A stretch of DNA of 64,000 nt, taken from sequence record OZ035799.1; one strand, given 5' to 3'. Source of the DNA: Justusliebigvirus alia. Shown piece by piece: positions 2,347 to 28,944 of the stretch. The notes beneath the pieces were generated by a model. The model saw only the letters and a list, made by a program, of their open reading frames with translations, was not told the DNA's origin and did not search any database. The stretch's first letter is position 1, and every line of letters begins with the position of its first letter. A program made the position numbers and the translations under genes.

Positions 2347-4977
2347 TCAATATCTGCCAGCGCCAAATACACCAAGTTTAATACCATTGATCGGTAAAGT
2401 GGTGCTTGTTGGTACTTTCTCTGTTGCAACACGGTTGATATCTATAATCTCCTGTACGGTTGTATTCCATTGTAAGCATTTAACACAACGGGTGTGCGCT
2501 ACATACAGTAGGTTTCGCTCTGCCTCTTCTAGTCCTACCCATTCACCAGTCTTTTTATCATAGTTGGAAGGAAAATCATTAGCAACAATAACCTGATCCC
2601 ACTCCAAACCTTTAGACTTGTGTGCTGTAGTCAGTGTGACTTTTGCTGTAGGGGAATTTCTATGCGTTCTAAGTGTATGTGCTATAGTGTTTGCCTTACC
2701 AGAAACTACGATGTTTAACAAGCGTTTAGCATCTGGATCAGCCTCTGCACACTCAACAAATTCATCCCAGTCTGCATAAGGTAATACAGTTTCATGTTTT
2801 ACTTTCTCAATATCTCCTCTCCGAAGAGCATTAACACTATCTACCATAGAGATAAAATCCCTGGTATCTACGTTAATAATAATTTCTTCCCCATCTGCAA
2901 TACGATCCATTGCCTCCATAAGCAAGGTTAAATTCTTGCGAAAGATGATAGTGTAAGGTTTTGTATAGTCTACAACATCTGATTTGTAGCTACCTACTAC
3001 AGTATCAAAGCCTTTACCAACCAAAGGATGACGCAAAGGTTCTTTATCACTTAAAATCATATTGGCAATGTTTGCCACTTTGGGGCCAAAACGGAAGCAA
3101 GCAGTTAATGGAAGCTCTGCCCCATACTTAGCTGTTTCAATCATCATATTAGAGCTACCTCTAAATTGATAAATACAGTTGTGGCTAAGAATTTCATTGC
3201 CAAAGAAGTTAGCAGTATCCTCTACTTCAATATCATAGTAGATACCCTCACTATCTACAATATCCACAATCTCTTCTGCTGTTACAGTATCACCATCTTT
3301 TACCAACACAGACATGCCTTTAAACAAACCCGCTGCCGGAATTAAGTTATATTTGGCAGTGTCTACAGAGGACATGCATTCTTTTAAAGATGCAAACGGA
3401 ACTATTTCAAGGATCTTTTGTGCAAAACTCAATGCTTCACAATAAGAATTGAAATATTTACGTACACGGTAACGACCTTCCAATTTAGCAACACTTACGC
3501 TTACACCTGCTTTAATGAGTGAAGCATAGATCGGCATTTCACTTTCTGTCCACTCAAAACTGACTTGTGTTCCTTTACAACCTTGTGCTCGCAAAGTCAC
3601 TGTTAACATTTTTCTTTCATCTACTGCACAATTGATGCTGTGCCAATGTGGATAAGCAAAATGATAGTCTTTATCCTCTAAAAGTTTAAAACCATTCTGT
3701 CCGAATTGTTCAAAGATGTTATTGATCCTTTCTTGATTAATGCCGCGTGAACTTGCTTCAAATACACAAGTAGGAATGCCATATTGTAAACTGTATGCCA
3801 TTTCTTTTTCCATAGCAGCTTCGCGATTTTCAACAATGTCCAACACCCATAATTTCTGTGCTTTTTCAGAACGTGTACGTTGCCCCAGTTTAGAAAAACC
3901 TTCTTTATCATCGAATTTGTTAGTGATCCCTACTCGGAAACCTAAATCTTTCCTCCACATTAGGTATACCACCATCTGGTCATCTTTCAGAACATAGGAT
4001 GAAGCCCAAATACGATGGTTATGTGTCATATCTAAAGTTTTACCTGTAGCAGTAATAATATTCCTACCTTTTGTACGTGTAGATAAAGTCTTATTTGTTA
4101 CTTTTCTAAATGTAACTTTACCATTAGAATAAGACTCTACCTTATCACCGATTTGCAGGTCTTTCATTGTAACCTGACCATTCTCGGTGTTAAGTACCGT
4201 GTTTTCCGACACACATTGGAATTCATCGCCAACTACCACAATTTGTTTTGCAGATTTAGCATTTCGCAGAATAGACAAGAATGCAGGGTTAACATCCTGG
4301 AATTCATCACCAAAAATAATATCATAACCAAGATCAGCACCAGATAATTCAAACAATTTTACATAGGTGTCATGCGTCATCAAAGTATCTGTGTTAGGAT
4401 CGATGCGCTCTCGCCACAATTGTTTTGCATACTTAACTACTTCTGTAATTAGTTTGTGTTCGTTAATACCTTTTCTTTTAATATCTGCAAGATGTACACC
4501 AGGAAAATGTTTACGGCTGATAAAAGGATCATCCGAAAATTCAAACTTACCTACGGTTTGCTTGATCATTAAACCAATCATAGCACGAGTTAAAAGTGTT
4601 TTCCCTCGTTTATCAATAAGATTATTAATCTTAAATTTCTTTGCTATCTCGCTACCTGTACCTGCAACGTTAACATACTGTCCTTCTGGTCGTGACAGTT
4701 TTGCACGTAAACGATGATCCAGGAATTGATAGCAAATAGAATGCAATGTACGGCATTCTACATTTAGTGGCATCTTACGTCGTGCTTCTTCTGCCATGCT
4801 TTTATTGAAAGCTAAGTAAAGAATGCGATCTTCTGTACTGTTAGCCAGCAAATAAAGTGTTGACGTTTTGCCTGATCCAGATTTAGCTTGGATAGTTAAA
4901 AAGCGATGGTCTGGAAAAGCCTCCTTAATAGCTGTTTGCTCTTCTGTTGGAGTGAAGCTCAACTCTTTCTTAGCCAT
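2347..4977 (-). CDS. SF1 (UvrD/PcrA-like) DNA helicase, intein-containing precursor
   Basis: Walker A AKSGSGKTST, motif II GDEFQD, motif III split as VVVGDEFQ / CIYQFRGSS by an inserted intein; start chosen at MAKKELSF (ATG 4977) directly after the upstream stop. Confidence 0.75.
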   Translation of the reverse strand: MAKKELSFTPTEEQTAIKEAFPDHRFLTIQAKSGSGKTSTLYLLANSTEDRILYLAFNKSMAEEARRKMPLNVECRTLHSICYQFLDHRLRAKLSRPEGQYVNVAGTGSEIAKKFKINNLIDKRGKTLLTRAMIGLMIKQTVGKFEFSDDPFISRKHFPGVHLADIKRKGINEHKLITEVVKYAKQLWRERIDPNTDTLMTHDTYVKLFELSGADLGYDIIFGDEFQDVNPAFLSILRNAKSAKQIVVVGDEFQCVSENTVLNTENGQVTMKDLQIGDKVESYSNGKVTFRKVTNKTLSTRTKGRNIITATGKTLDMTHNHRIWASSYVLKDDQMVVYLMWRKDLGFRVGITNKFDDKEGFSKLGQRTRSEKAQKLWVLDIVENREAAMEKEMAYSLQYGIPTCVFEASSRGINQERINNIFEQFGQNGFKLLEDKDYHFAYPHWHSINCAVDERKMLTVTLRAQGCKGTQVSFEWTESEMPIYASLIKAGVSVSVAKLEGRYRVRKYFNSYCEALSFAQKILEIVPFASLKECMSSVDTAKYNLIPAAGLFKGMSVLVKDGDTVTAEEIVDIVDSEGIYYDIEVEDTANFFGNEILSHNCIYQFRGSSNMMIETAKYGAELPLTACFRFGPKVANIANMILSDKEPLRHPLVGKGFDTVVGSYKSDVVDYTKPYTIIFRKNLTLLMEAMDRIADGEEIIINVDTRDFISMVDSVNALRRGDIEKVKHETVLPYADWDEFVECAEADPDAKRLLNIVVSGKANTIAHTLRTHRNSPTAKVTLTTAHKSKGLEWDQVIVANDFPSNYDKKTGEWVGLEEAERNLLYVAHTRCVKCLQWNTTVQEIIDINRVATEKVPTSTTLPINGIKLGVFGAGRY
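3178..4215 (-). other. intein (about 346 aa) inserted in helicase motif III
   Basis: Block A CVSENTVL at insertion start, block B MTHNHRIW, C-terminal blocks YDIEVEDTANFFGNEILSHN followed by +1 Cys; flanking exteins rejoin to GDEFQ-CIYQFRG. Confidence 0.75.
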
Positions 4978-4978
4978 T

Positions 4979-5455
4979 TCAACCTCTCTTAATTTGTTTA
5001 ACAAGCATAGGAACAAAATCTCGTTTTAAAATTTGTTCAATAATATGATCAGGTAGCTGTTGGAAATTATAATTAAAAGCTACTGTCTCACCTTTAGGTG
5101 TTTCTACCCGCACATATAACATGTTACGAAGTTTATCCACTTGTGCTGTATATTCTAAACCATGTAATTGATGCATTGCAAACATCAAATCATCAGTTTC
5201 AGTTTGGAATCTATCATTTGCTTGCATTAAGGACAAGGTAAAAGGTAGATTTTCCCTAAGAGCCACCTTCTTAGGAACTAGTGAAGGAAAATACTCACCA
5301 ATAACTTCCTGTGTAAGCTGGATACACTCTTTTTCAATTTGGTTTTGTTCCTTAAGTTCACAAACACTTTTTTGTAAAGTGTTAACCTCTTTTTGCAAAG
5401 CTGCTAGTTGAGCACTTAACTTTCTTTTTTGATTACGACCAAAACGTTTAGACAT
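4979..5455 (-). CDS. hypothetical protein
   Basis: 158 aa ORF, basic N-terminus with predicted coiled-coil character; no recognisable motif. Confidence 0.5.
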   Translation of the reverse strand: MSKRFGRNQKRKLSAQLAALQKEVNTLQKSVCELKEQNQIEKECIQLTQEVIGEYFPSLVPKKVALRENLPFTLSLMQANDRFQTETDDLMFAMHQLHGLEYTAQVDKLRNMLYVRVETPKGETVAFNYNFQQLPDHIIEQILKRDFVPMLVKQIKRG

Positions 5456-7082: not shown

Positions 7083-7445
7083 TTATTTCTCCTTATCATC
7101 ATATTCTAAGAACATATCTGCACGATATGCTTTACGCTCTTCAAACTTAGCAGGATCTACAACAATAAGCAATACAAGGTTAACATCTAAATACTTCTTA
7201 ACAAATAGAAATAAATCTTTTCCACAGTTAAAACCTACACCAGTATAGGCATCCCCATATTGATCTACTGATTTAATCTTCTTACTAACCGTACATTCTA
7301 TGCTATTCTTTTCTTCTTGGTATAAGGCTTTCCCACCCCAATATGTAAAGAATTTAGTACCGTCAGCACCAAGTTTAAAACCTTCTGTTGCATGCCCAGC
7401 AAATGAAAGTAAACATAACCAAGTGATCATCAGGTACTTTAGCAT
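7083..7445 (-). CDS. putative secreted protein
   Basis: Start at MLKYLMITWLCLLSFAGHA gives an N-terminal signal-peptide-like hydrophobic segment ending AGHA. Confidence 0.5.
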   Translation of the reverse strand: MLKYLMITWLCLLSFAGHATEGFKLGADGTKFFTYWGGKALYQEEKNSIECTVSKKIKSVDQYGDAYTGVGFNCGKDLFLFVKKYLDVNLVLLIVVDPAKFEERKAYRADMFLEYDDKEK

Positions 7446-10958: not shown

Positions 10959-11249
10959 TTATAGTAAAACACGTTTTGCACTGCTTGGTGCATTGTCGAA
11001 CATGTTTATCACTTTGTCAAGTTTGTGTATTAACTCGTTCGTAATGTTCCACTCTTTGTATGATCTCCATTGTTTCTTATTCTCACCTACCTGGTGTAAA
11101 ACTTTGATTGGTGCATTCAAACGTACATTGCGTTCTTTGTCCTCTTCAAAAGAGGCTAACCATTTTTCGTTATGCCCATGAACAGCAATAATAATGCCAA
11201 AACCATCAAAAGTTTCTGTAATATTCTTAGTTGCTAGTGTGATGTTCAT
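10959..11249 (-). CDS. hypothetical protein
   Basis: 96 aa ORF with GAGG SD; first gene of the minus-strand block (divergent from 11374). Confidence 0.5.
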   Translation of the reverse strand: MNITLATKNITETFDGFGIIIAVHGHNEKWLASFEEDKERNVRLNAPIKVLHQVGENKKQWRSYKEWNITNELIHKLDKVINMFDNAPSSAKRVLL

Positions 11250-11373
11250 ATCTAACCTCTTTTGTTACGATACACACACACAGAGTACCAGAAATTAATT
11301 TCAGATCAAGTATTGACATACTGTTTTATTGTGCTAATCTTAATGCATACACAAATGAGAGGAGATAAACGAA

Positions 11374-11924
11374 TGCAAAACATCGATCTTACTTGGATAG
11401 AAGCCAAAGAAGCAATGTTAAAAGGCAAACGCGTTAAACATAAATACTTCTGCGAAGGAGAATGGTTTGAAATGCGTAACCGATCCATTGTAGATGAAAA
11501 AGGGAATGACATGCAACAATGGTTCAAAAATGAAATTTGGCAGGGAACAGGTTGGTCTGTAGTTGAAGAGCAGCCTAGCTCAAGCGCACTGTTTAGCCCT
11601 ACTATGTATCGCGTTATCGGTGCTTTAGTTGTTGATCACGGAATTGCAGTGGAAAAAGAATGCTGGGAAGAGGTATCTTTTTTCAACCTGGCTTCTTATG
11701 CAAAAAGCCATATGCACTTGTTTGAAGAAGGGGATGAATTTGTTCTTCGTATGCGATACGGCAAAGAATTCAGATTACCACTTGATAACGATGTAGACAC
11801 TGTTGTAAAATGGTTAGCAGAGCATTATGCTTACGATGCAATTTGTGGTCGCAGCTTCGGCAACGAACGCTGGGACATGATTTGTGAAAAATATGATTTT
11901 GAGCCGGAGTACGGAGTTTTATAA
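11374..11924 (+). CDS. hypothetical protein
   Basis: Start at MQNIDLTWIEAK with GAGAGGAG SD (11358-11365); track ORF starts further upstream without SD. Confidence 0.5.
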
Positions 11925-12175
11925 TGTTAAGTATCAAACCTAAAATGATAACAGAAGACGAAGCAGACTTTATTTTCAAATGTGGACGTGTATGGAGAGA
12001 ATTCACAAAAGGGAATGAAGTAGTGGTTGTTGTCGAACACAAGATATCTATTCAGGATCTGTTTGGACAATATGTTGATGTTATTAAATTAGGTATTGAC
12101 AAGGGTTTAGTTGAGGTGTTAACATTAGATCAAGTTGAAGCAGAGCACCTCGATAAAGTGGTGGTTGAATTTTAA
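11924..12175 (+). CDS. hypothetical protein
   Basis: 83 aa ORF, ATG overlaps previous stop. Confidence 0.5.
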   Translation: MLSIKPKMITEDEADFIFKCGRVWREFTKGNEVVVVVEHKISIQDLFGQYVDVIKLGIDKGLVEVLTLDQVEAEHLDKVVVEF

Positions 12176-12195
12176 AATACAGACGGGAGAAAGGT

Positions 12196-12369
12196 ATGAG
12201 TTTCTTTGTTACAGTATTTATGGCTATCTGGATTGTAGTCTCACTCGTTCTTTTCCTGGTGGGTTGTCTGGAAGAGATTAAGAAAGCGGTTATTTGCGGT
12301 TTCTTTGGCTTTATTATCTCTCCTGCCTGGATGTGGTTCTTCATTATGATTGGTTTCCTTAAAAGGTAA
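12196..12369 (+). CDS. hypothetical small membrane protein
   Basis: 57 aa, two hydrophobic segments (FFVTVFMAIWIVVSLVLFLVG; FGFIISPAWMWFFIMIGF); GGGAGAAAGG SD; not in track. Confidence 0.4.
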   Translation: MSFFVTVFMAIWIVVSLVLFLVGCLEEIKKAVICGFFGFIISPAWMWFFIMIGFLKR

Positions 12370-12383
12370 GTGAGGAATAAAGA

Positions 12384-12821
12384 ATGAGTAAAACAAACGC
12401 AATCGCAGATAAAGCAACGGATGTACTTCTGAACATGGTTAACGTCACTATTCAAACAATGAGTGATGTTGTGGAGTTTGGAAAACAACAAATTCCAGAA
12501 GTAATCCATCAATTATTAGTGTGGAAAGCAGTATCCGCAGGTTTATGGCAACTTTTTAGTATTTGCTTTATGGTTATTACTTTTATTGCTGTGCGGAACC
12601 TCGTAAAAGCAATTAAAGATAAAGAATGCCTGTGGTCACGAGATCGCTATGGTGAAGTATCTGCTTTACCTATTGTTGGCCTTGTTGTCTGTGCTTTCTT
12701 TTTCTTTTTAGGATTTGTTATTTTCTTTTCGAATTTTGATTGGCTAAAAATCATTATTGCACCAAAAGTGTATCTGATTGAATTTGCTGCTGATTTAATT
12801 CGTTCATCTCAACAAAAATAA
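12384..12821 (+). CDS. putative membrane protein
   Basis: 145 aa with hydrophobic segments (AVSAGLWQLFSICFMVITFIAV; LPIVGLVVCAFFFFLGFVIFF). Confidence 0.5.
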   Translation: MSKTNAIADKATDVLLNMVNVTIQTMSDVVEFGKQQIPEVIHQLLVWKAVSAGLWQLFSICFMVITFIAVRNLVKAIKDKECLWSRDRYGEVSALPIVGLVVCAFFFFLGFVIFFSNFDWLKIIIAPKVYLIEFAADLIRSSQQK

Positions 12822-12832
12822 AAGGGGTTAAA

Positions 12833-13960
12833 ATGAAATACACGATTTATGGTGATATTGTAAGTGTAAATAAAGATATGGGCGTGGAATCTAACTATCT
12901 TCCACCTGGATTCTATACTGTTAGTCGTGATCCCCTTGGCAATTACTTTTTAAGCCGTGGTAATCTAACAGGTGTACCGGATGTTCTGTATGGTGAAACA
13001 GAAAAACGAGCAAATCACGTTATTCGTACATTCCATCGCCGGAGTGCACAAGGTAAAAATACAGGTTTGCTCCTGACAGGCACTAAGGGCAGTGGTAAAA
13101 CTATGTTAGCCAAACTCATTAGTCGTGACCTTGTAGAAGAAGGTATTCCAACTATTATGGTTACTCAAGCCTACAGTGATGCTAATTTCATTGAGCTTAT
13201 TAGCAAGATCACCGACAAAGCAGTGATTATTTTTGACGAGTTTGATAAAGTATATGAGAAGAAACAAGATCAAGAAGCACTTCTCACTTTGTTAGATGGT
13301 ACTGGCAGTGGTAATAAACTGTTTATTCTGACTAAAAACAGTGGTTTTATCTCTGAATTCTTTTTAAATCGTCCTAGTCGTGTGTTTTATAATTTTAATT
13401 ATGATAAAATCTCACTAGAAACTATGATTGACTATTTAGATAAAAACCTGGATAACAAAGCACACTTTGATAATTTCCAAAGACTTTGGGATGTAAGTTT
13501 AGAGTTGTCCTTTGATGTGATCCAAGGTATAGTAGAAGAACTTAATTTCTACCCTGATTTATCCTTTAAAGAATGCATCTCTATGATGGGCGTTTCTTTG
13601 GGTGGTGGTAATAAGTGGGATATCAGCAGCGTTGTTATTAATGGGAAACTTCAGAAAGTTAGCTGGGTATCTAGTTGGCATAACTTCACACCTGCAATCT
13701 TTTTAGGTGGCTCGTGCACACTAGACGTGTACTTGTCATCTCCAAGTGATGCAGACTCTAAAGAAGCCCTTGCTAATAGCTCTTACGTGGTTTTTGATGA
13801 TGAAGGAGATGCTCGAATTCCATTGAATGCGACAAAAATGAAAGCAGATCTTATTACAGGCGGTAAAATCGTTGTGTTTAGTGATGATCCAGAAGATTCT
13901 TTCCGTATTGTTCTGGAACCAACTATCACCAATGGTGCAACTTTGGCAAGCGTGTTTTAA
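12833..13960 (+). CDS. AAA-family ATPase
   Basis: Walker A LLLTGTKGSGKTMLAK, Walker B AVIIFDEFD; function not assignable. Confidence 0.65.
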   Translation: MKYTIYGDIVSVNKDMGVESNYLPPGFYTVSRDPLGNYFLSRGNLTGVPDVLYGETEKRANHVIRTFHRRSAQGKNTGLLLTGTKGSGKTMLAKLISRDLVEEGIPTIMVTQAYSDANFIELISKITDKAVIIFDEFDKVYEKKQDQEALLTLLDGTGSGNKLFILTKNSGFISEFFLNRPSRVFYNFNYDKISLETMIDYLDKNLDNKAHFDNFQRLWDVSLELSFDVIQGIVEELNFYPDLSFKECISMMGVSLGGGNKWDISSVVINGKLQKVSWVSSWHNFTPAIFLGGSCTLDVYLSSPSDADSKEALANSSYVVFDDEGDARIPLNATKMKADLITGGKIVVFSDDPEDSFRIVLEPTITNGATLASVF

Positions 13961-13975
13961 GTAAGCCAGCAAATA

Positions 13976-14002
13976 AAAACCCGCTCCGGCGGGTTTTCTT
14001 GT
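13976..14002 (+). terminator. rho-independent terminator
   Basis: AACCCGCTCCGGCGGGTT hairpin followed by TTCTTGTATT; near-identical element at 40219. Confidence 0.6.
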
Positions 14003-14034
14003 ATTGATGCCAGATTTAATAAGAGGAGTAATAG

Positions 14035-15207
14035 ATGACAGCACCAAAATCATGGGAACAATATAAAGAAGAATTAACACCCCTTGCTAAAAATCGCAAT
14101 ATTCAAATCCTGGGTTATGTTGGTGAATGGAAAGGGAACAAGACTAAACTTAAGCTATCTTGCCCTAAACATGGAGAGTGGAACACCACGAACATTAATG
14201 ATTTTAAGAAGGGACGTGGTTGTCCTATCTGTTCTGGTAAGAAGCCGTTAACATGGGAAACAGAATTGCCGATCTTGGAAGAGATAGCACAGAAGAGGGG
14301 GTATCAGGTGTTAGGGTACGTGGGAGAATGGAAAGGGAATAAAACAAAACTTGATTTGTTGTGTCATTGTGGTAATAAATGGGATACTACAAGTATTAAC
14401 AATTTTAAACGTGGTAGCGGTTGTCCACAATGTAAGAGGGAGAGACAAACAATGTCCGACGATCAACATATTGCAGATTTCTTTTCTACAGGGGAATTTA
14501 AGGAAGGCACTATCTTCACCAATACAGGGAAACGTAACAAGCGTGATGCAGTATGGATGGTTGAGTGTCCTGTTTGCTCCCATGATGAATATGTTCAAGC
14601 AGGTGTTTGTGATGGTAAATTTTACTCTGCAGGACATAACCTTAAACAAGGGTATATTCCGTGTCGTTGTGGGAACTATCAGTATACAGAAGACCAGATC
14701 ACCTATAGGGTAAAAAAGGAAGTAGAAGGGAAAGGGTATGTCTGGGTAGATTGGATTACCAAACCCTCTTCTATAGGTAAGTTTAAATATCTTTGTCTTG
14801 TGCATGGTGATCAGATAGGGAGTGCTCGTAATTTATTAAGCCTCGGTCAAGGTTGTCCACAGTGTGCTGGTCATAATCAACAGCAATTATATATTAATAT
14901 TGTTAAAGATAATGATATTATAGTTGCTCTTAAGTTTGGTATATCTAAAGATAGCGATAGACGATTAAACGGTCAAAATAGCCGTAATCTGTTTTTTATG
15001 GAGCGTATTTGTTTATATGATTTTAGCACAGTGAAACAATGTAAGGCTGCTGAAAGAGCTATAAAGAAAAAATTAAAAACTGGTATTTTAACGGAAAGAG
15101 AGTTGAAAGACGGTTATACAGAAACAGTAAGTGTTTCTGATTTGGAAAATCTTCAAAAAATTATTACACAATATGGTGGCAAATTAGTATACAGTAAGGA
15201 GATGTAA
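14035..15207 (+). CDS. putative homing-endonuclease-like protein (tandem zinc-ribbon repeats + T5orf172/GIY-YIG-like C-terminal domain)
   Basis: Repeated LGYVGEWKGNKTKL...C..HG.W.....F..G.GCP.C modules (four Cys pairs); C-terminal ALKFGISKDSDRRLNGQN resembles the T5orf172 family motif. Confidence 0.45.
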   Translation: MTAPKSWEQYKEELTPLAKNRNIQILGYVGEWKGNKTKLKLSCPKHGEWNTTNINDFKKGRGCPICSGKKPLTWETELPILEEIAQKRGYQVLGYVGEWKGNKTKLDLLCHCGNKWDTTSINNFKRGSGCPQCKRERQTMSDDQHIADFFSTGEFKEGTIFTNTGKRNKRDAVWMVECPVCSHDEYVQAGVCDGKFYSAGHNLKQGYIPCRCGNYQYTEDQITYRVKKEVEGKGYVWVDWITKPSSIGKFKYLCLVHGDQIGSARNLLSLGQGCPQCAGHNQQQLYINIVKDNDIIVALKFGISKDSDRRLNGQNSRNLFFMERICLYDFSTVKQCKAAERAIKKKLKTGILTERELKDGYTETVSVSDLENLQKIITQYGGKLVYSKEM

Positions 15208-15759
15208 ATGCGGATTACTGATAAGTATGTGTTCTTCTTTTCAGCAAAAGATGAATTTAGCAACTGGTATCTATCATCTTTTATTGAACCTTTAGCACCC
15301 AAGTATAATAATTCTATTACAAGTTCTGTTGAATTTACTTGTGTGGAACAATATATGATGTGGAGAAAAGCATGTTTGTTTTATGATTACAGTATTGCAT
15401 CTTCTATTTTAACCGGAGATCTAAGATATACAGGAGAAAAAGAACAAGCATATTATAAACGACTAGGCAGATTAGTTAAAGATTATGATGAAGATACCTG
15501 GGCTTCTTTACGGGAGAAGATTGTCAAGCGTGGTTTGTATCTTAAATACACACAAAATGAAGATCTCAAAAATAAACTTATCGCTTACGCAGATAAGGAG
15601 TTCGTAGAGGCAAGCCCTTATGATTCTATTTATGGTATCAAAATGGGGATGTGGGATCGTGACGTGGAAAATAAGGACTGTTGGAAAGGACAAAATCTTT
15701 TAGGAAAATGGCATACAGACCTTGCTGTTTATCTAAAAGCACAATCTGATATTTCCTGA
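15208..15759 (+). CDS. NADAR (YbiA-like) domain protein
   Basis: FFFSAKDEFSNWY ... VEQYMMWRKACLF ... SPYDSIYGIKMG pattern matches NADAR family. Confidence 0.6.
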   Translation: MRITDKYVFFFSAKDEFSNWYLSSFIEPLAPKYNNSITSSVEFTCVEQYMMWRKACLFYDYSIASSILTGDLRYTGEKEQAYYKRLGRLVKDYDEDTWASLREKIVKRGLYLKYTQNEDLKNKLIAYADKEFVEASPYDSIYGIKMGMWDRDVENKDCWKGQNLLGKWHTDLAVYLKAQSDIS

Positions 15760-15974
15760 TATTTTGAAAATTTTTATTTTTATAAAAAGGGGTGTGGGTT
15801 TCATGTACGGAAATTCACCCTCTGAATAATATATCCAGAGTAAGTATTATTTTGTACTCTGTTAATAAATTATTTAATTTGTTTGTTGGAATATGTTATC
15901 TGGTTTTTAAAAGGCATACTATCTCTTAACTACTACTTATAACAGAACAGTAAAATCATTTTTATAAAAAGGAC

Positions 15975-16182
15975 AAAATTATTTAAAGTTTTTACAGATT
16001 TTTGGGTACAAATTTAGAAAATGAAAAGTTCAAGTTTGGTCAAAATTATTTAAAGTTTTTGTACGTATTTCTATCCAGATTTTGAAAATGAAAACTTCAA
16101 TTTTTTAAAAATTCCCCAGTTTATTTAAAGTTTTTTTGCCTTTTTCCGTAGAAAAATCAAAAATGAAAAGTTCAATTTCGTG
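15975..16182. repeat. three imperfect tandem repeats of about 65-75 bp
   Basis: Each unit begins (a)aaattatttaaagttttt and ends gaaaatgaaaa(g/c)ttcaa. Confidence 0.6.
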
Positions 16183-16195
16183 TTTTTATGGGTGT

Positions 16196-16295
16196 GCGTA
16201 TGATAATCATTTTCATTTGTAAATGAGAATCATTATCATTTAAGTATGTAAGTGATAATCATTCTCACTAAGAGAATGAGAATCATTAGCAAATG
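16196..16295. promoter_or_regulatory. cluster of Fur-box-like palindromes
   Basis: gtaaatgagaatcattatc and gagaatgagaatcattagc each match 16/19 of the Fur consensus GATAATGATAATCATTATC; flanked by gataatcatt half-sites. Confidence 0.35.
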
Positions 16296-16573
16296 AGAAT
16301 TTTTCTCATTTAGAGAATAACGCGCAGGGGTGGTGTTTGTCTCGCGCTCCCGTGTCCCCTCGCCATACAATAAGAATAGCATAACCAACAACAAAAGCAA
16401 GCGATTATTTTTATCTTTACATTTCTTTACAAATTTATTTTAGACGAGCTACCGGCGATCAACCTTCCAACCAGTAGTGCCCTGGTATGTTAGCCCCGCC
16501 TTTACGCCGTGGGGGTGGCGTTTCCTCTTCTGTATGTAAAACAGTATAAGCCCGATCCCTGGGCTTGTCAAGA

Positions 16574-16840
16574 TTATTTTTTGTTTTCTTGCCAGGATAG
16601 GACACCTAACCAAAAATACATGTCGCCCCGCGCCCCTGGCGGGATCTTGCTTTCCCCGCCGCCACTGCAAGCCCATAGATAACCATTTACGAACGTATCA
16701 AAGTGATCTATCTCTTCCACCTTATGATTGCCCAGGTTGAGAACGGTTTCAACCTTTAAGCCCGTTGCGCTTGCTACCTGGTGCACCGTGCCGCCTTGCC
16801 AGCCCAATGAGTGCATGAGATGTAAAGGAGTATTTGTCAT
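16574..16840 (-). CDS. hypothetical protein in GC-rich island
   Basis: 88 aa ORF (MTNTPLHLMHSLGWQGGTVHQVA...) with AAAGGG SD; sits in locally GC-rich segment unlike the rest of the window. Confidence 0.3.
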   Translation of the reverse strand: MTNTPLHLMHSLGWQGGTVHQVASATGLKVETVLNLGNHKVEEIDHFDTFVNGYLWACSGGGESKIPPGARGDMYFWLGVLSWQENKK

Positions 16841-17104
16841 GGTATCGCCCTTTCTTTGATGTGCGCCCTGGTTGGCGCGGTAGAAAGATAATAGCCGTTT
16901 CCTTTATAGATAGCAAGCAAAAAAGAAATGAAAAAAGATTAAAAAAATGGTTGACGTTCCTCACCTGGTAGCGTAGTATTCATCTTGTCGAGGGGGCGAG
17001 GCACAACGACAATAAACAAAAGGAGGGCGCAATGTAGGACGGGCAAAGGTGAGGATCTCCACAATCCACCGTCACAATAACATTACTTATAAAAGGTTGA
17101 TAAC

Positions 17105-17200
17105 GATGATCAAGAAAGAAAACAGCTTGACGGTTGGAACGATTAACGCTATCATTCTTGCCGTTCCATTTTGGGTTGTAGTAGCGGTTATTATTTTTTA
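17105..17200 (+). CDS. hypothetical small hydrophobic peptide
   Basis: 31 aa (MIKKENSLTVGTINAIILAVPFWVVVAVIIF); TTGACG-17-TAGTAT promoter-like sequence about 150 nt upstream; speculative. Confidence 0.2.
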
Positions 17201-17209
17201 AAAATATTC

Positions 17210-17267
17210 TTGACAACGTTTTTTAATCTGATAAGATGTATCACATAGGGCGGCAATAGTGCCGCTC
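17210..17267 (+). promoter_or_regulatory. promoter + 5' GC hairpin cassette
   Basis: TTGACA (17210-17215), spacer, CACATA, hairpin GGGCGGCAATAGTGCCGCTC (17248-17267), then AGAGAGA SD and ATG 17290. Confidence 0.5.
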
Positions 17268-17289
17268 ATAACAGAAGAGAGAAATAATC

Positions 17290-17562
17290 ATGGCATCATA
17301 TAGCGCATCAATGATTGTAATGGGTATCACTGGTAAACCTATGCGCGGTGGCGGATCTTTCGCTAACATCAATATTGATGGACGTTTATCCCTGGACGCA
17401 GCGATCACAGTGGCACGGGAAACGTTTAAAAAAGAATGTAATTTCAATAAACAAGATTATCTCGGCTTCGTTATTGAAAAAACCGCGCGCTTTGTTGATT
17501 ATAAAAGCCCGAAAATGATCGACACTACACTAAAGGCGCAAGATGTAGCTTTTTTGCTTTAA
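17290..17562 (+). CDS. hypothetical protein
   Basis: 90 aa ORF behind cassette. Confidence 0.5.
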   Translation: MASYSASMIVMGITGKPMRGGGSFANINIDGRLSLDAAITVARETFKKECNFNKQDYLGFVIEKTARFVDYKSPKMIDTTLKAQDVAFLL

Positions 17563-17570
17563 GGCTTGAC

Positions 17571-17625
17571 ACTGAAAAATAATTTGGTAATATATACCAC
17601 ATAAGGCGGGAAATGGTTTCCCGCC
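17571..17625 (+). promoter_or_regulatory. promoter + 5' GC hairpin cassette
   Basis: TTGACA ... TATATACCACATAA ... hairpin GGCGGGAAATGGTTTCCCGCC (17605-17625). Confidence 0.5.
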
Positions 17626-17647
17626 AAATCAAAGAAAGGGTAACACA

Positions 17648-18010
17648 ATGAGCAAGCAAATCAATACTATCATGTTAAACCTGGTATCTTTCCGTGATGA
17701 CGTGAAAAATCTTTCGCGTGATGCAGTGGATGCACGGATCGAAAGCTATCGCACACAGATCGCAACATTACCGTTAAAACGTGATCAACATGCCGCTAAT
17801 ATGATGCTTGATGCTATGATTAAAAAGATGATTCAGTGTGATCTTACCCTGGCTTATGAATATGCTGGCGATCTCTTTGTAACGTATAATAAGCCCGTTC
17901 CAGGTATGAGCACCACGGAAGAATTGCATGCCTTAAATCTGCGACAAGATGCATGGGATAACATGCGCCGTGTTATGGTATGGGCCGAAAGCGGTAAAAT
18001 TTACGAATAA
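17648..18010 (+). CDS. hypothetical protein
   Basis: 120 aa ORF behind cassette. Confidence 0.5.
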   Translation: MSKQINTIMLNLVSFRDDVKNLSRDAVDARIESYRTQIATLPLKRDQHAANMMLDAMIKKMIQCDLTLAYEYAGDLFVTYNKPVPGMSTTEELHALNLRQDAWDNMRRVMVWAESGKIYE

Positions 18011-27149: not shown

Positions 27150-27429
27150 ACCTCAATAAAGATGATAGCTTTTACCTATCAAAAACGTTCACCGAAAAAA
27201 GTGAATAGATCGCGGTATCGAGCTAATCAAGGAGCAGATGAACAACCATACCATGAAGATCATAAGGCGCTTACAACGTGTTTTAGACCGCTTATTTTTA
27301 ATTTCTTCATGCAACTATCTGGCAAAAACAGCCTTTTTCTTGTCTTTCCTCTTAAATGATAATCATTCTTATTTATAGCTGATTATTTATGCAATAAACT
27401 GCATAATGCAATAATGATAATCATTCTTA

Positions 27430-28062: not shown

Positions 28063-28944
28063 ACATCGTGAATAATGATGCTGATGATCATAATGCGCCA
28101 CCTTCCAGGGCGGCGCTATGTGAACACAAAGAAATCTTTCTTGTCAAGAAAAATATTAACACTATTGCGCAAAATTATTTATATATGAATAGATGGTTTT
28201 TCATACTATTGCCCCTATAACATACCTCATTTGTTGCAATGTACCTTCCTATTTGTTGAGTATAGTTATAGCCTATTTGTTGAGCCTACTTTCTTAAAAG
28301 CGCAATAAAGTAGAAATATCTTGATTTTTAGTCGGTTTTATAGTACAGAAAGTATGCAAATGATAATCATTATCAGCTATCTTCCACGGGTAGCACTATT
28401 TCACGCCAGATCATTTCATTTGGCAAGGTGTATATAGATGTTTAGACTTGCCAAGCCATTGATTTACTTAGAATTTATCTGTTTTGTTGTGAGTAGTACC
28501 TTTCTTGCTCAGAAAATAATCAAAAGTCTTATAAGTCATTGAATGATAATGCAAATGATAATTATTCTCATTGATATTTGAGGGGGACGGTCGGCAGAAA
28601 TCGGGGGGCGCTGAAAATCGCGTTAAGCACCTCTCGCAAGCGAGCAGTATTTTGCGGCAAGTTATTGATATTATTGACTTTACGCTTATGAAAAGGGGGT
28701 GTGTCGAAATAAATCGGGTATACCGGAAAATTTTTGTGGCATAGATATTTATTTGTCTATATTATGTACAAAGGGGTGTGTTAAAAATATTAGGTATATA
28801 TAGAATAATTGATAGGGAAATCCTATGCTAATCCCTCCATTAATGATGTTCCTATGTTACTGTTCTTGTAATAGATGAAAAGACGCTGTATGATGTGTGG
28901 CATGAAACGTAAACTTACAACGTAAACTTATAAAGGAGTCTGAT

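Follow-up and report, generated by a model that had tools for sequence, protein, structure and literature searches.

The subject of this article is a run of three genes in the genome of Justusliebigvirus alia, read from a 64,000-nucleotide (nt) stretch of sequence record OZ035799.1 that we refer to throughout as the window. The third of these genes, an open reading frame (ORF) of 183 codons at 15208..15759 that encodes a NADAR protein, is by its sequence the Justusliebigvirus allele of AdfN^Bas60, a counter to DarTG1. We are largely persuaded that the region as a whole is made up of three functionally separate genes, namely this AdfN^Bas60 allele, a free-standing gene of the homing-endonuclease type and a conserved AAA+ ATPase that is simply their neighbor. 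The window matches OZ035770.1 at 100% identity; that record is Justusliebigvirus alia, an Escherichia coli myovirus of ~148 kilobases (kb) belonging to the Stephanstirmvirinae.

An earlier, sequence-only reading of the window, made by a model without database searches, had picked out the same trio and suggested that the NADAR protein might counter ADP-ribosylation of phage DNA, possibly as part of a mobile cassette delivered by the endonuclease. The three ORFs are indeed there, on the + strand and exactly where that reading put them (12833–13960, 14035–15207 and 15208–15759), and its domain calls (AAA, zinc-ribbon/T5orf172 and NADAR) agree with profile searches against Pfam and PHROG, the T5orf172 match being marginal. 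Of the reading overall, the observation and the interpretation of NADAR stand; the cassette and the involvement of the AAA gene do not.

In the scheme we favor, the NADAR protein would strip ADP-ribose, attached by host DarT1, from guanine in phage DNA during infection, which would let the phage replicate in E. coli carrying DarTG1. It would do so as a stand-alone ADP-ribosylglycohydrolase with no action on the thymidine modification made by DarT2. In the protein encoded by the middle gene, four tandem CapR zinc-ribbon modules would read a long DNA target, which the C-terminal GIY-YIG/T5orf172 domain would then cut. The endonuclease gene occupies the intergenic gap after the AAA terminator; it would come and go as a unit of exactly ORF size and diversify as whole CapR modules are exchanged, duplicated or deleted. 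It would mark a recombination boundary, and NADAR would not be its cargo. The AAA+ ATPase, a protein of large myoviruses, would end the upstream transcription unit and have no demonstrable link to the other two genes. Some of this is already known: phage NADAR acting against DarT1 was reported in 2025 and the CapR/T5orf172 class of endonucleases in 2023. What is new, and minor, is a pair of phages (phiWec188 and phiWec179) with an empty and an occupied site for the middle gene, the shuffling of modules in Stephanstirmvirinae and a breakpoint beside a counter-defense gene.

The NADAR gene and AdfN^Bas60

The protein encoded at 15208..15759 (+ strand) matches the NADAR family PF08719 with 125.4 bits against a cutoff of 35.1, residues 13–168 being covered, and further matches were found to phrog_1017 (6.1e-50) and to the PADLOC profile PDC-M42C (1.9e-34). 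The same locus is present in three BASEL phages, Bas60 (PaulScherrer), Bas61 (EmilieFrey) and Bas62 (JohannJBalmer), whose NADAR proteins are identical to that of the window at 181/183, 181/183 and 180/183 residues, respectively. The Bas60 gene, bas60_0111, equals the window gene in length and lies at the same locus, between the same flanking genes, in a phage of the same genus; we take it to be AdfN^Bas60. The two substitutions (A99 in the window for T, and A178 for T) fall at none of the eight active-site positions we mapped.

AdfN^Bas60 was named and tested by Johannesman, Awasthi, Carlson and LeRoux (Nat Commun 2025, PMC11825919). In their hands, it neutralized the DarT1 toxin in uninfected E. 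coli and, expressed ectopically, brought phages RB69, T5 and Bas25 back to full titer on a DarTG1 host, giving T5 no help against DarTG2 (PMC11825919). The authors placed it among bacterial NADARs that belong to neither the YbiA nor the DarG1 group (PMC11825919). The chemistry of the superfamily is the removal of ADP-ribose from the N2 of guanine (Schuller et al. 2023, PMC11543638; Cihlova et al. 2024, PMC11125620).

The active site can be followed residue by residue. The window protein matches the solved NADAR of P. nicotianae (8BAU; E=6.4e-13, residues 6–147), in which we compared the residues that contact ADP-ribose or take part in catalysis: E43, K50, R79, W89, R93, E125, D130 and W133. 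With an offset of 2 between chain index and the numbering of the paper, all eight positions land on the expected 8BAU residue. Seven of the eight are identical in the window protein (E47, K54, R88, W98, R102, E134 and D139), and the eighth, W133, is conservatively replaced by Y142. Across ten loci of Justusliebigvirus, the ratio of nonsynonymous (dN) to synonymous (dS) divergence of NADAR is <=0.09, indicating strong purifying selection.

Active-site conservation and identity to AdfN^Bas60 can thus be seen directly, and for the presumed activity we rely on published work with a protein that departs from this one at 2/183 residues. Two points weigh against the assignment. Those differences, A99/T99 and A178/T178, separate the window allele from the protein that was assayed, and the main text of PMC11825919, whose evidence on AdfN^Bas60 comes from ectopic expression, contains no knockout in a native Justusliebigvirus that we could find. 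For this last reason, the necessity of NADAR in this phage can only be presumed. The predicted function is nonetheless as well supported as it can be for an untested allele, and is already in the literature. The proposal that NADAR counters guanine ADP-ribosylation of the DarT type is therefore borne out, given 181/183 identity to a protein for which this was demonstrated experimentally; the sequence-only reading had treated the idea as open, when it had been published in 2025 (PMC11825919). As to NADAR and DarT ADP-ribosylation, there is no new biology here, the activity having been shown for an essentially identical protein.

The CapR and GIY-YIG gene

Directly upstream of NADAR, and on the same strand, is a free-standing homing-endonuclease-like gene of 390 codons (14035..15207), with a Shine-Dalgarno-like AAGAGGAG at 14021..14028, 6 nt 5' of its ATG by direct reading. 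Its product matches the CapR homology domain PF21817 in four stretches (147.9 bits, E=9.4e-44) and phrog_681, labeled 'endonuclease', at 4.6e-87. The ligand pattern and an island of divergence described below mark an array of four CapR zinc-ribbon modules at 14056..14874, hypervariable and apparently module-shuffled. The modules run approximately, from the structural model and the cysteine pattern, over residues 8–69, 72–136, 140–215 and 217–280. There are exactly four CxxC motifs, at residues 63, 130, 178 and 274, so that the 'four CxxC' description of the sequence-only reading was literally correct. Each has a partner knuckle upstream (CxxH, CxC or CxxC), except that the third unit has its CxC downstream, and the zinc ligand quartets are C43/H46/C63/C66, C110/C112/C130/C133, C178/C181/C210/C212 and C254/H257/C274/C277.

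An alignment of 43 homologues, reaching down to 24% identity, holds cysteines C110, C130, C133, C178, C212, C254, C274 and C277 invariant, together with Y286, K300, G302, R310, Q314, E340, D359, G360, E363 and T364. From the spacing of the motifs, we infer that Y286, R310 and E363 are the catalytic Tyr, Arg and Glu of the nuclease domain, which spans residues ~284–387 (14884..15195, + strand). A homologue search with the isolated C-terminal domain returned 1 match, and the search was then made with the full-length protein. The AlphaFold model of the full-length protein has a mean predicted local distance difference test score (pLDDT) of 89.5 and a predicted TM-score (pTM) of 0.47. Foldseek found nothing at E<=0.001 in the PDB with the whole 390-residue model, a search that is uninformative for a model of the beads-on-a-string kind. 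Because the T5orf172 profile match is marginal and nearly absent from homologues, the nuclease domain was examined structurally, being modeled alone to settle the fold after the whole-chain Foldseek; the model gives the C-terminal domain a GIY-YIG fold. Searched by sequence, the protein had chance antibody matches only among PDB chains and no match in PADLOC or NCBIfam.

In the phage collection, the 'putative homing endonucleases' of the Vibrio phage ICP1 are homologues of the middle protein, with 24–28% identity over ~80% of the length and E-values down to 2e-23. Homing endonuclease genes of the T5orf172 class, with one or more zinc fingers of the CapR type as their DNA-binding part, were described by Barth, Dunham and Seed (2023, PMC10448857), who also reported that the number of CapR repeats shifts by recombination, as in ICP1 gp174/gp174* (PMC10448857). 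CapR itself was described by Netter et al. (2021, PMC8096241), the Pfam name coming from the ICP1-related system. Taken together, the four PF21817 stretches, the invariant residues and the GIY-YIG domain support the description of this gene as a zinc-ribbon/T5orf172 endonuclease-like gene.

A number of observations count against reading it as an endonuclease gene that homes. The T5orf172 profile PF10544 scores 20.9 bits against a cutoff of 20, a mere 0.9 bits above it; the score is similarly marginal in three other alleles, and the Phapecoctavirus allele matches the related MUG113 instead, below threshold. A precomputed PF10544 call exists for just 1/120 listed homologues. Finally, identity-band counts suggest that all 55 Justusliebigvirus records have the gene, which would fit a fixed and possibly domesticated gene as readily as an active homing element.

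The gene's most striking property is how unevenly it diverges. Across the ten Justusliebigvirus loci, amino acid identity is 99.7–100% for the AAA protein, 67–99% for the middle protein and 97.8–100% for NADAR. A 100-nt sliding comparison places the divergence in an island at ~14000–15040, corresponding to the CapR array, with 96–100% identity over the final ~170 nt of the gene and in the two flanks. The island is itself a patchwork. Compared with the window, phage PD114 has a dS of 1.70 in modules 1–2 and 0.61 in modules 3–4; for phage PATM the values are 0.42 and 1.89. In the nuclease domain, dS is 0.02–0.18 and in the flanking genes 0.03–0.13. The dN/dS of the middle gene is 0.26–0.6. Since dS is high in single modules and dN/dS is below 1, the pattern points to old, diverged CapR modules that have been imported and shuffled. 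The number of modules varies too, Bas61 having one unit fewer (325 residues) and Bas60 one extra (467 residues), and the GenBank record for 'alia', MN850632 ('endonuclease [Escherichia phage alia]'), holds an allele of 465 residues against 390 in the window. Fast positive selection was considered as the cause of the island and ruled out by the very high dS of the modules and the dN/dS below 1. What looked like a decayed, truncated endonuclease gene in vB_EcoM_01 was likewise dismissed, the record having a run of N within the gene.

Mobility and its rival explanations

The clearest sign of mobility comes from phiWec179 and phiWec188, two species of the proposed genus 'Wecvirus' (PMC12695924). 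In phiWec179, the AAA gene is followed by a CapR/T5orf172 gene of 337 codons; in phiWec188, it is followed directly by the next ORF, the order being AAA, two small ORFs and NADAR, so that NADAR is kept without the endonuclease gene. The difference is an insertion or deletion (indel) of ~998 nt that is precise to the ORF, running from the terminator hairpin of the AAA gene to the Shine-Dalgarno sequence of the next gene, with flanks 95–100% identical. A free-standing homing endonuclease gene classically leaves such a footprint, as would its clean loss. In most records of the sister group, the flanks are conserved and the middle gene is too diverged for megablast; phiWec188 was conspicuous for the shortness of its span. 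Within Justusliebigvirus, we found no presence/absence polymorphism of the middle gene, there being 55 records each for AAA, middle gene and NADAR as counted by identity bands rather than by record-by-record intersection. The two small ORFs (121 residues, and 59–62 residues) that separate the endonuclease gene from NADAR are additional genes of Phapecoctavirus and 'Wecvirus'; they occur at L004 (ukendt, 4446–5004), L014, L015, L018 and L019, have no Pfam match and are not present in Justusliebigvirus.

Both members of the pair, endonuclease gene and NADAR, are missing from the Klebsiella-phage lineage of Stephanstirmvirinae, represented by phi1_175008 and a contig from IMG/VR (loci L011 and L017), where a DUF6939 gene is in the slot. 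This gene follows AAA at 7313–8002 in L011 and 6005–6622 in L017 (PF22075, E=1.3e-9), the two copies being 95% identical, and its product has a stretch, 'ENAWQFSKVY', that resembles the NADAR core motif by eye only. The sequence-only reading had proposed checking whether relatives lack the gene pair at this locus: L011 and L017 lack both genes, and phiWec188 lacks the endonuclease gene only and keeps NADAR. One further record, OR544956.1 (vB_EcoM_EP57), matches only residues 112–172 of NADAR, with ~1.9 kb from AAA to NADAR in three pieces. This 130.7-kb record may be misassembled, or the endonuclease gene may have been deleted along with the 5' portion of NADAR. An IMG/VR scan anchored on the AAA protein gave 4 loci only, and the GenBank phage collection was used for the survey of presence and absence.

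In Justusliebigvirus, the endonuclease gene and NADAR meet at a coupling junction (15196..15210, + strand, direct reading). The TAA stop of the former (15205–15207) abuts the ATG of the latter (15208–15210) in …GAGATGTAAATGCGG…, and direct reading places the AAGGAG Shine-Dalgarno sequence of NADAR inside the last codons of the endonuclease gene, which would thereby supply the ribosome-binding site of NADAR. It probably supplies the transcript as well, as the stop and start codons abut.

How independent, then, are the neighbors in their histories? The 3' half of the AAA gene in the window is nearest IMGVR1/IMGVR2, with 1/560 nt differences against 14/552 in NADAR (Fisher p=4.4e-4). NADAR is nearest PATM, with 3/552 nt differences against 19/318 in the adjoining nuclease-domain segment (Fisher p=1.6e-6). 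Because the nearest relatives switch across the middle gene, a recombination breakpoint can be placed at or near the endonuclease/NADAR junction, and such a breakpoint argues against the two genes traveling as one cassette.

The alternative that survives best, to which we would give perhaps one chance in four, is that the CapR/GIY-YIG gene is a domesticated nuclease or a DNA-binding regulator from which the phage benefits, the shuffling of modules being an arms race over targets. It might act against satellites or co-infecting phages in the manner of ICP1 Odn, or as a repressor like the CapR of PLE. Identity-band counts suggest that every one of the 55 Justusliebigvirus records has the gene in intact form; its dN/dS of 0.26–0.6, being below 1, means that the ORF is maintained; and no variation is seen at the predicted nuclease residues. 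Domestication of T5orf172 and CapR proteins has precedents in the literature, among them the Odn-like genes of two phages of the same genus, Inny and Muut. Set against these is an intergenic slot that is cleanly filled in one phage and empty in another, as is classically seen with free-standing homing genes. Moreover, the DNA-binding part is of the CapR type and not the RepA_N type that marks Odn-like anti-satellite nucleases, and no target was identified for a domesticated nuclease. Somewhat less probable again, yet worth stating, is a livelier form of the homing-endonuclease reading: that the gene homes actively and that its cuts turn the adfN boundary into a hot spot of recombination, so that co-infecting Stephanstirmvirinae swap adfN alleles faster than the rest of the genome and occasionally exchange the whole slot, for which the DUF6939 gene in the Klebsiella-phage lineage offers a comparison.

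More doubtful is the cassette, in which the endonuclease would cut naive genomes, NADAR would be copied across as cargo and an anti-defense gene would spread by homing. The abutting TAA and ATG and the Shine-Dalgarno sequence of NADAR inside the endonuclease ORF favor the cassette or some looser link, the two genes are adjacent, or two small ORFs apart, across Justusliebigvirus and Phapecoctavirus, and their joint absence from L011 and L017 also speaks for the cassette or the looser link. In Vequintavirinae, a NADAR with 40–42% identity is found beside an endonuclease gene of another kind, HNH. In T4, it is established that markers on the flanks of homing endonuclease genes are co-converted with them. 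Such co-conversion has been argued for phages generally (PMC10448857). What tells against the cassette is that the phiWec188 indel ends at the Shine-Dalgarno sequence of the next gene, with the downstream ORFs and NADAR retained; that NADAR and the nuclease segment have distinct histories relative to PATM, as the counts above indicate; and that a unit copied as a block would show matched divergence, whereas the endonuclease is 67–99% and NADAR 97.8–100% identical. The suggestion of a 'mobile cassette delivered by the endonuclease' thus founders on phiWec188, which keeps NADAR without the endonuclease gene, and on the switch of nearest relatives at the boundary. As an observation in its own right, the HNH gene of Vequintavirinae lies immediately 3' of NADAR in Salmonella phage KE23 and Klebsiella phage KpS8 (L005 4965–5947 and L006 5001–5946), a second, unrelated nuclease family beside a phage NADAR.

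The remaining rivals concern the genes on either side. NADAR might be a YbiA-like housekeeping N-glycosidase acting on intermediates of the riboflavin pathway or other small metabolites, its effect on DarT1 a side activity. Two findings pull away from AdfN and toward this annotation: the protein reaches 110 bits with the NCBIfam model TIGR02464 ('riboflavin biosynthesis intermediates N-glycosidase'), whose cutoff is 73.7, and it shares with enzymes of the YbiA class a Glu (E134) at the catalytic position. E. coli YbiA itself strips ADP-ribosylated guanine (G-ADPr) in vitro. GenBank labels for NADAR range over 'hypothetical', '(putative) YbiA-like N-glycosidase', 'GTP cyclohydrolase II' and 'NADAR family protein', of which the second and third fit the idea; labels of the 'YbiA-like' style arise because TIGR02464 scores above cutoff. 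This is an 'equivalog_domain' model that evidently captures non-YbiA NADARs too. We nevertheless regard the YbiA-like reading as highly improbable. E. coli YbiA gives cells no protection from DarT1, but AdfN^Bas60 protects them and also returns three unrelated phages to full titer; the published tree puts AdfN^Bas60 outside the YbiA group (PMC11825919); and no riboflavin-pathway domain or gene was found in the NADAR protein or the neighboring ORFs scanned. The Glu has another implication for the AdfN allele. A 2026 paper reports that Glu-type NADAR and YbiA families also remove ADP-ribose from cytidine, which the His-type enzyme of T4 and the Asp-type DarG1 do not (PMC12945103). By analogy with other Glu-type NADARs, the phage AdfN may do the same and, if so, would have a wider counter-defense range than T4 AdfN.

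The AAA+ ATPase gene (12833..13960, + strand, 375 residues) matches PF00004 (E=1.5e-9) and phrog_2376, 'ATPase' (6.6e-108), and Walker A (GTKGSGKT) and Walker B (IIFDEFD) can be read in its translation. In GenBank, it is variously called 'FtsH-like protease', 'ATPase or Zn metalloprotease' and 'regulatory inactivator', and in one record, a feature in the AAA–NADAR stretch carries the label 'large ribosomal subunit protein'. Its profile matches are to AAA-type P-loop families only, with no peptidase family among them, and no HExxH is visible in the translation. The 'FtsH-like protease' label (M41, HEXXH) is unsupported, no peptidase domain having been found. Against PADLOC and NCBIfam, the protein has only generic P-loop matches, far below cutoffs. 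Between its stop codon and the endonuclease Shine-Dalgarno sequence, at 13976..13997 on the + strand, scan and direct reading both find an intrinsic-terminator-like hairpin, AAAACCCGC-TCCG-GCGGGTTTT, of 9 pairs, 5 of them G-C, followed by the T-tract CTTGTATT; a terminator is annotated at the equivalent position in the record for phage PATM. Among the Justusliebigvirus loci, the dN of the gene is near 0 and its dS 0.06–0.10. It is kept at 74% identity in L011 and L017, both without endonuclease and NADAR, and its homologues, found in 379 phage records, extend to Herelleviridae and jumbo phages. In Semele and phiEF17H, distant phages with both genes, AAA and NADAR are 9–19 kb apart, and the NADAR neighborhood of Vequintavirinae is different and without an AAA gene. 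Given the terminator, the retention without the pair, the wide distribution and the fact that AdfN^Bas60 acts alone from a plasmid, the AAA gene closes the upstream transcription unit and is only a neighbor of the NADAR function; the role hinted at by the sequence-only reading is not borne out. Least credible of all is a three-gene module for anti-defense or DNA repair, for although Justusliebigvirus and Phapecoctavirus have the genes side by side on one strand, the hairpin, the conservation of AAA in L011/L017 and where NADAR is distant or absent, and the effectiveness of ectopically expressed AdfN^Bas60 on its own (PMC11825919) all speak against it.

Neighboring sequence and known systems

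The sequence 3' of NADAR has several features of its own. A 67-base-pair (bp) unit occurs there in two tandem copies and, by eye, a partial third ('caaaattatttaaagttttt ... gaaaatgaaaagttcaa'; 15974–16175). The stretch is AT-rich and ORF-poor and has no Rfam match, and the GC fraction of 15001–16000, 0.309, is among the lowest in the window; the repeats could be iterons or a promoter array. It overlaps an apparently non-coding region, 16040–16439, that is 94–100% identical across the Justusliebigvirus loci covering it, with 16040–16139 and 16340–16439 at 100% in most loci. Conservation at or above that of the neighboring NADAR coding sequence suggests a constrained regulatory or structural DNA or RNA element. 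Also present are matches to the Fur-box-like sequence GATAATGATAATCATTATC with <=3 mismatches, at 16219, 16272, 27410 and 28356, for a count of 5 against 0.02 expected. The site at 28356 has 2 mismatches and is palindromic, the two distal sites spanning 27410–27428 and 28356–28374. Around the proximal sites, at 16195–16310, roughly five 'aatgagaatcatt' units recur by eye with a period of ~29 bp. Their core 13-mer is kept in 8/9 other Justusliebigvirus loci, the exception being L008/IMGVR1, and both phiWec loci have it a single time, in the opposite orientation. The cluster may represent iron- or Fur-responsive phage promoters, or serve to titrate Fur; none of the papers searched links Fur boxes with these phage genera. 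Further on, an ORF of 88 codons on the - strand (16574–16840) is annotated in relatives, for example as bas62_0108, has a recognizable homologue even in the divergent L011 (8806–9009) and is flanked by terminator-like hairpins at 16496–16518 and 16548–16566. Elsewhere in the window, there are no paralogues of the three genes; a tRNA search of the window found none, and no Rfam family matched at E<=0.1 within 11000–18000.

The practical value of this work lies in annotation, since dozens of GenBank records are concerned: the NADAR gene could be renamed adfN and its neighbor AAA ATPase. Beyond that, the locus is a small, clean natural example of nuclease genes at the boundaries of genetic exchange and of CapR modules shuffling, beside a counter-defense gene and in the setting of therapeutically relevant E. 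coli phages. The phiWec179/phiWec188 pair amounts to a ready-made system for a homing cross.

Each gene of the pair can be placed among characterized relatives. The GIY-YIG domains of SLX1, At-HIGLE and I-TevI are only 14–16% identical in sequence to the nuclease domain of the middle protein. Their second motif is Y-I-G, where the middle protein has K-F-G, as is usual for T5orf172, and their DNA-binding modules are unrelated to its CapR array. Much closer are the T5orf172 genes of the ICP1 type, which share the architecture of CapR repeats followed by T5orf172 and whose repeat number likewise recombines. Unlike them, the middle gene is found in Stephanstirmvirinae of E. coli, has four modules and adjoins a counter-defense gene rather than an essential one.

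As for NADAR, the stand-alone 'NADAR family' proteins of bacteria and the P. nicotianae enzyme (8BAU) have a Glu/Lys/Arg/Trp/Arg/Glu/Asp set that is kept in the window protein, which differs from 8BAU in having Y142 for W133 and in being a phage protein of a type whose role in counter-defense was demonstrated with the Bas60 allele. AdfN^T4 (T4 gp30.3) and the NADARs of DarG1 antitoxins belong to the same superfamily and catalyze the same reaction, taking ADP-ribose off the N2 of guanine in DNA. They differ at the catalytic position, which is His in the T4 type, Asp in DarG1 and Glu (E134) in the window protein, and the N-terminal extension of the DarG1 type is absent from the latter. AdfN^T4 needs the context of a T-even infection and fails on DarT1 in uninfected cells, where AdfN^Bas60 works. 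According to the authors, phages acquired their NADARs of the T4 and Bas60 types independently (PMC11825919). Closest of all is AdfN^Bas60 with its counterparts in Bas61 and Bas62, which have every mapped active-site residue in common with the NADAR of the window, positions 99 and 178 lying outside them.

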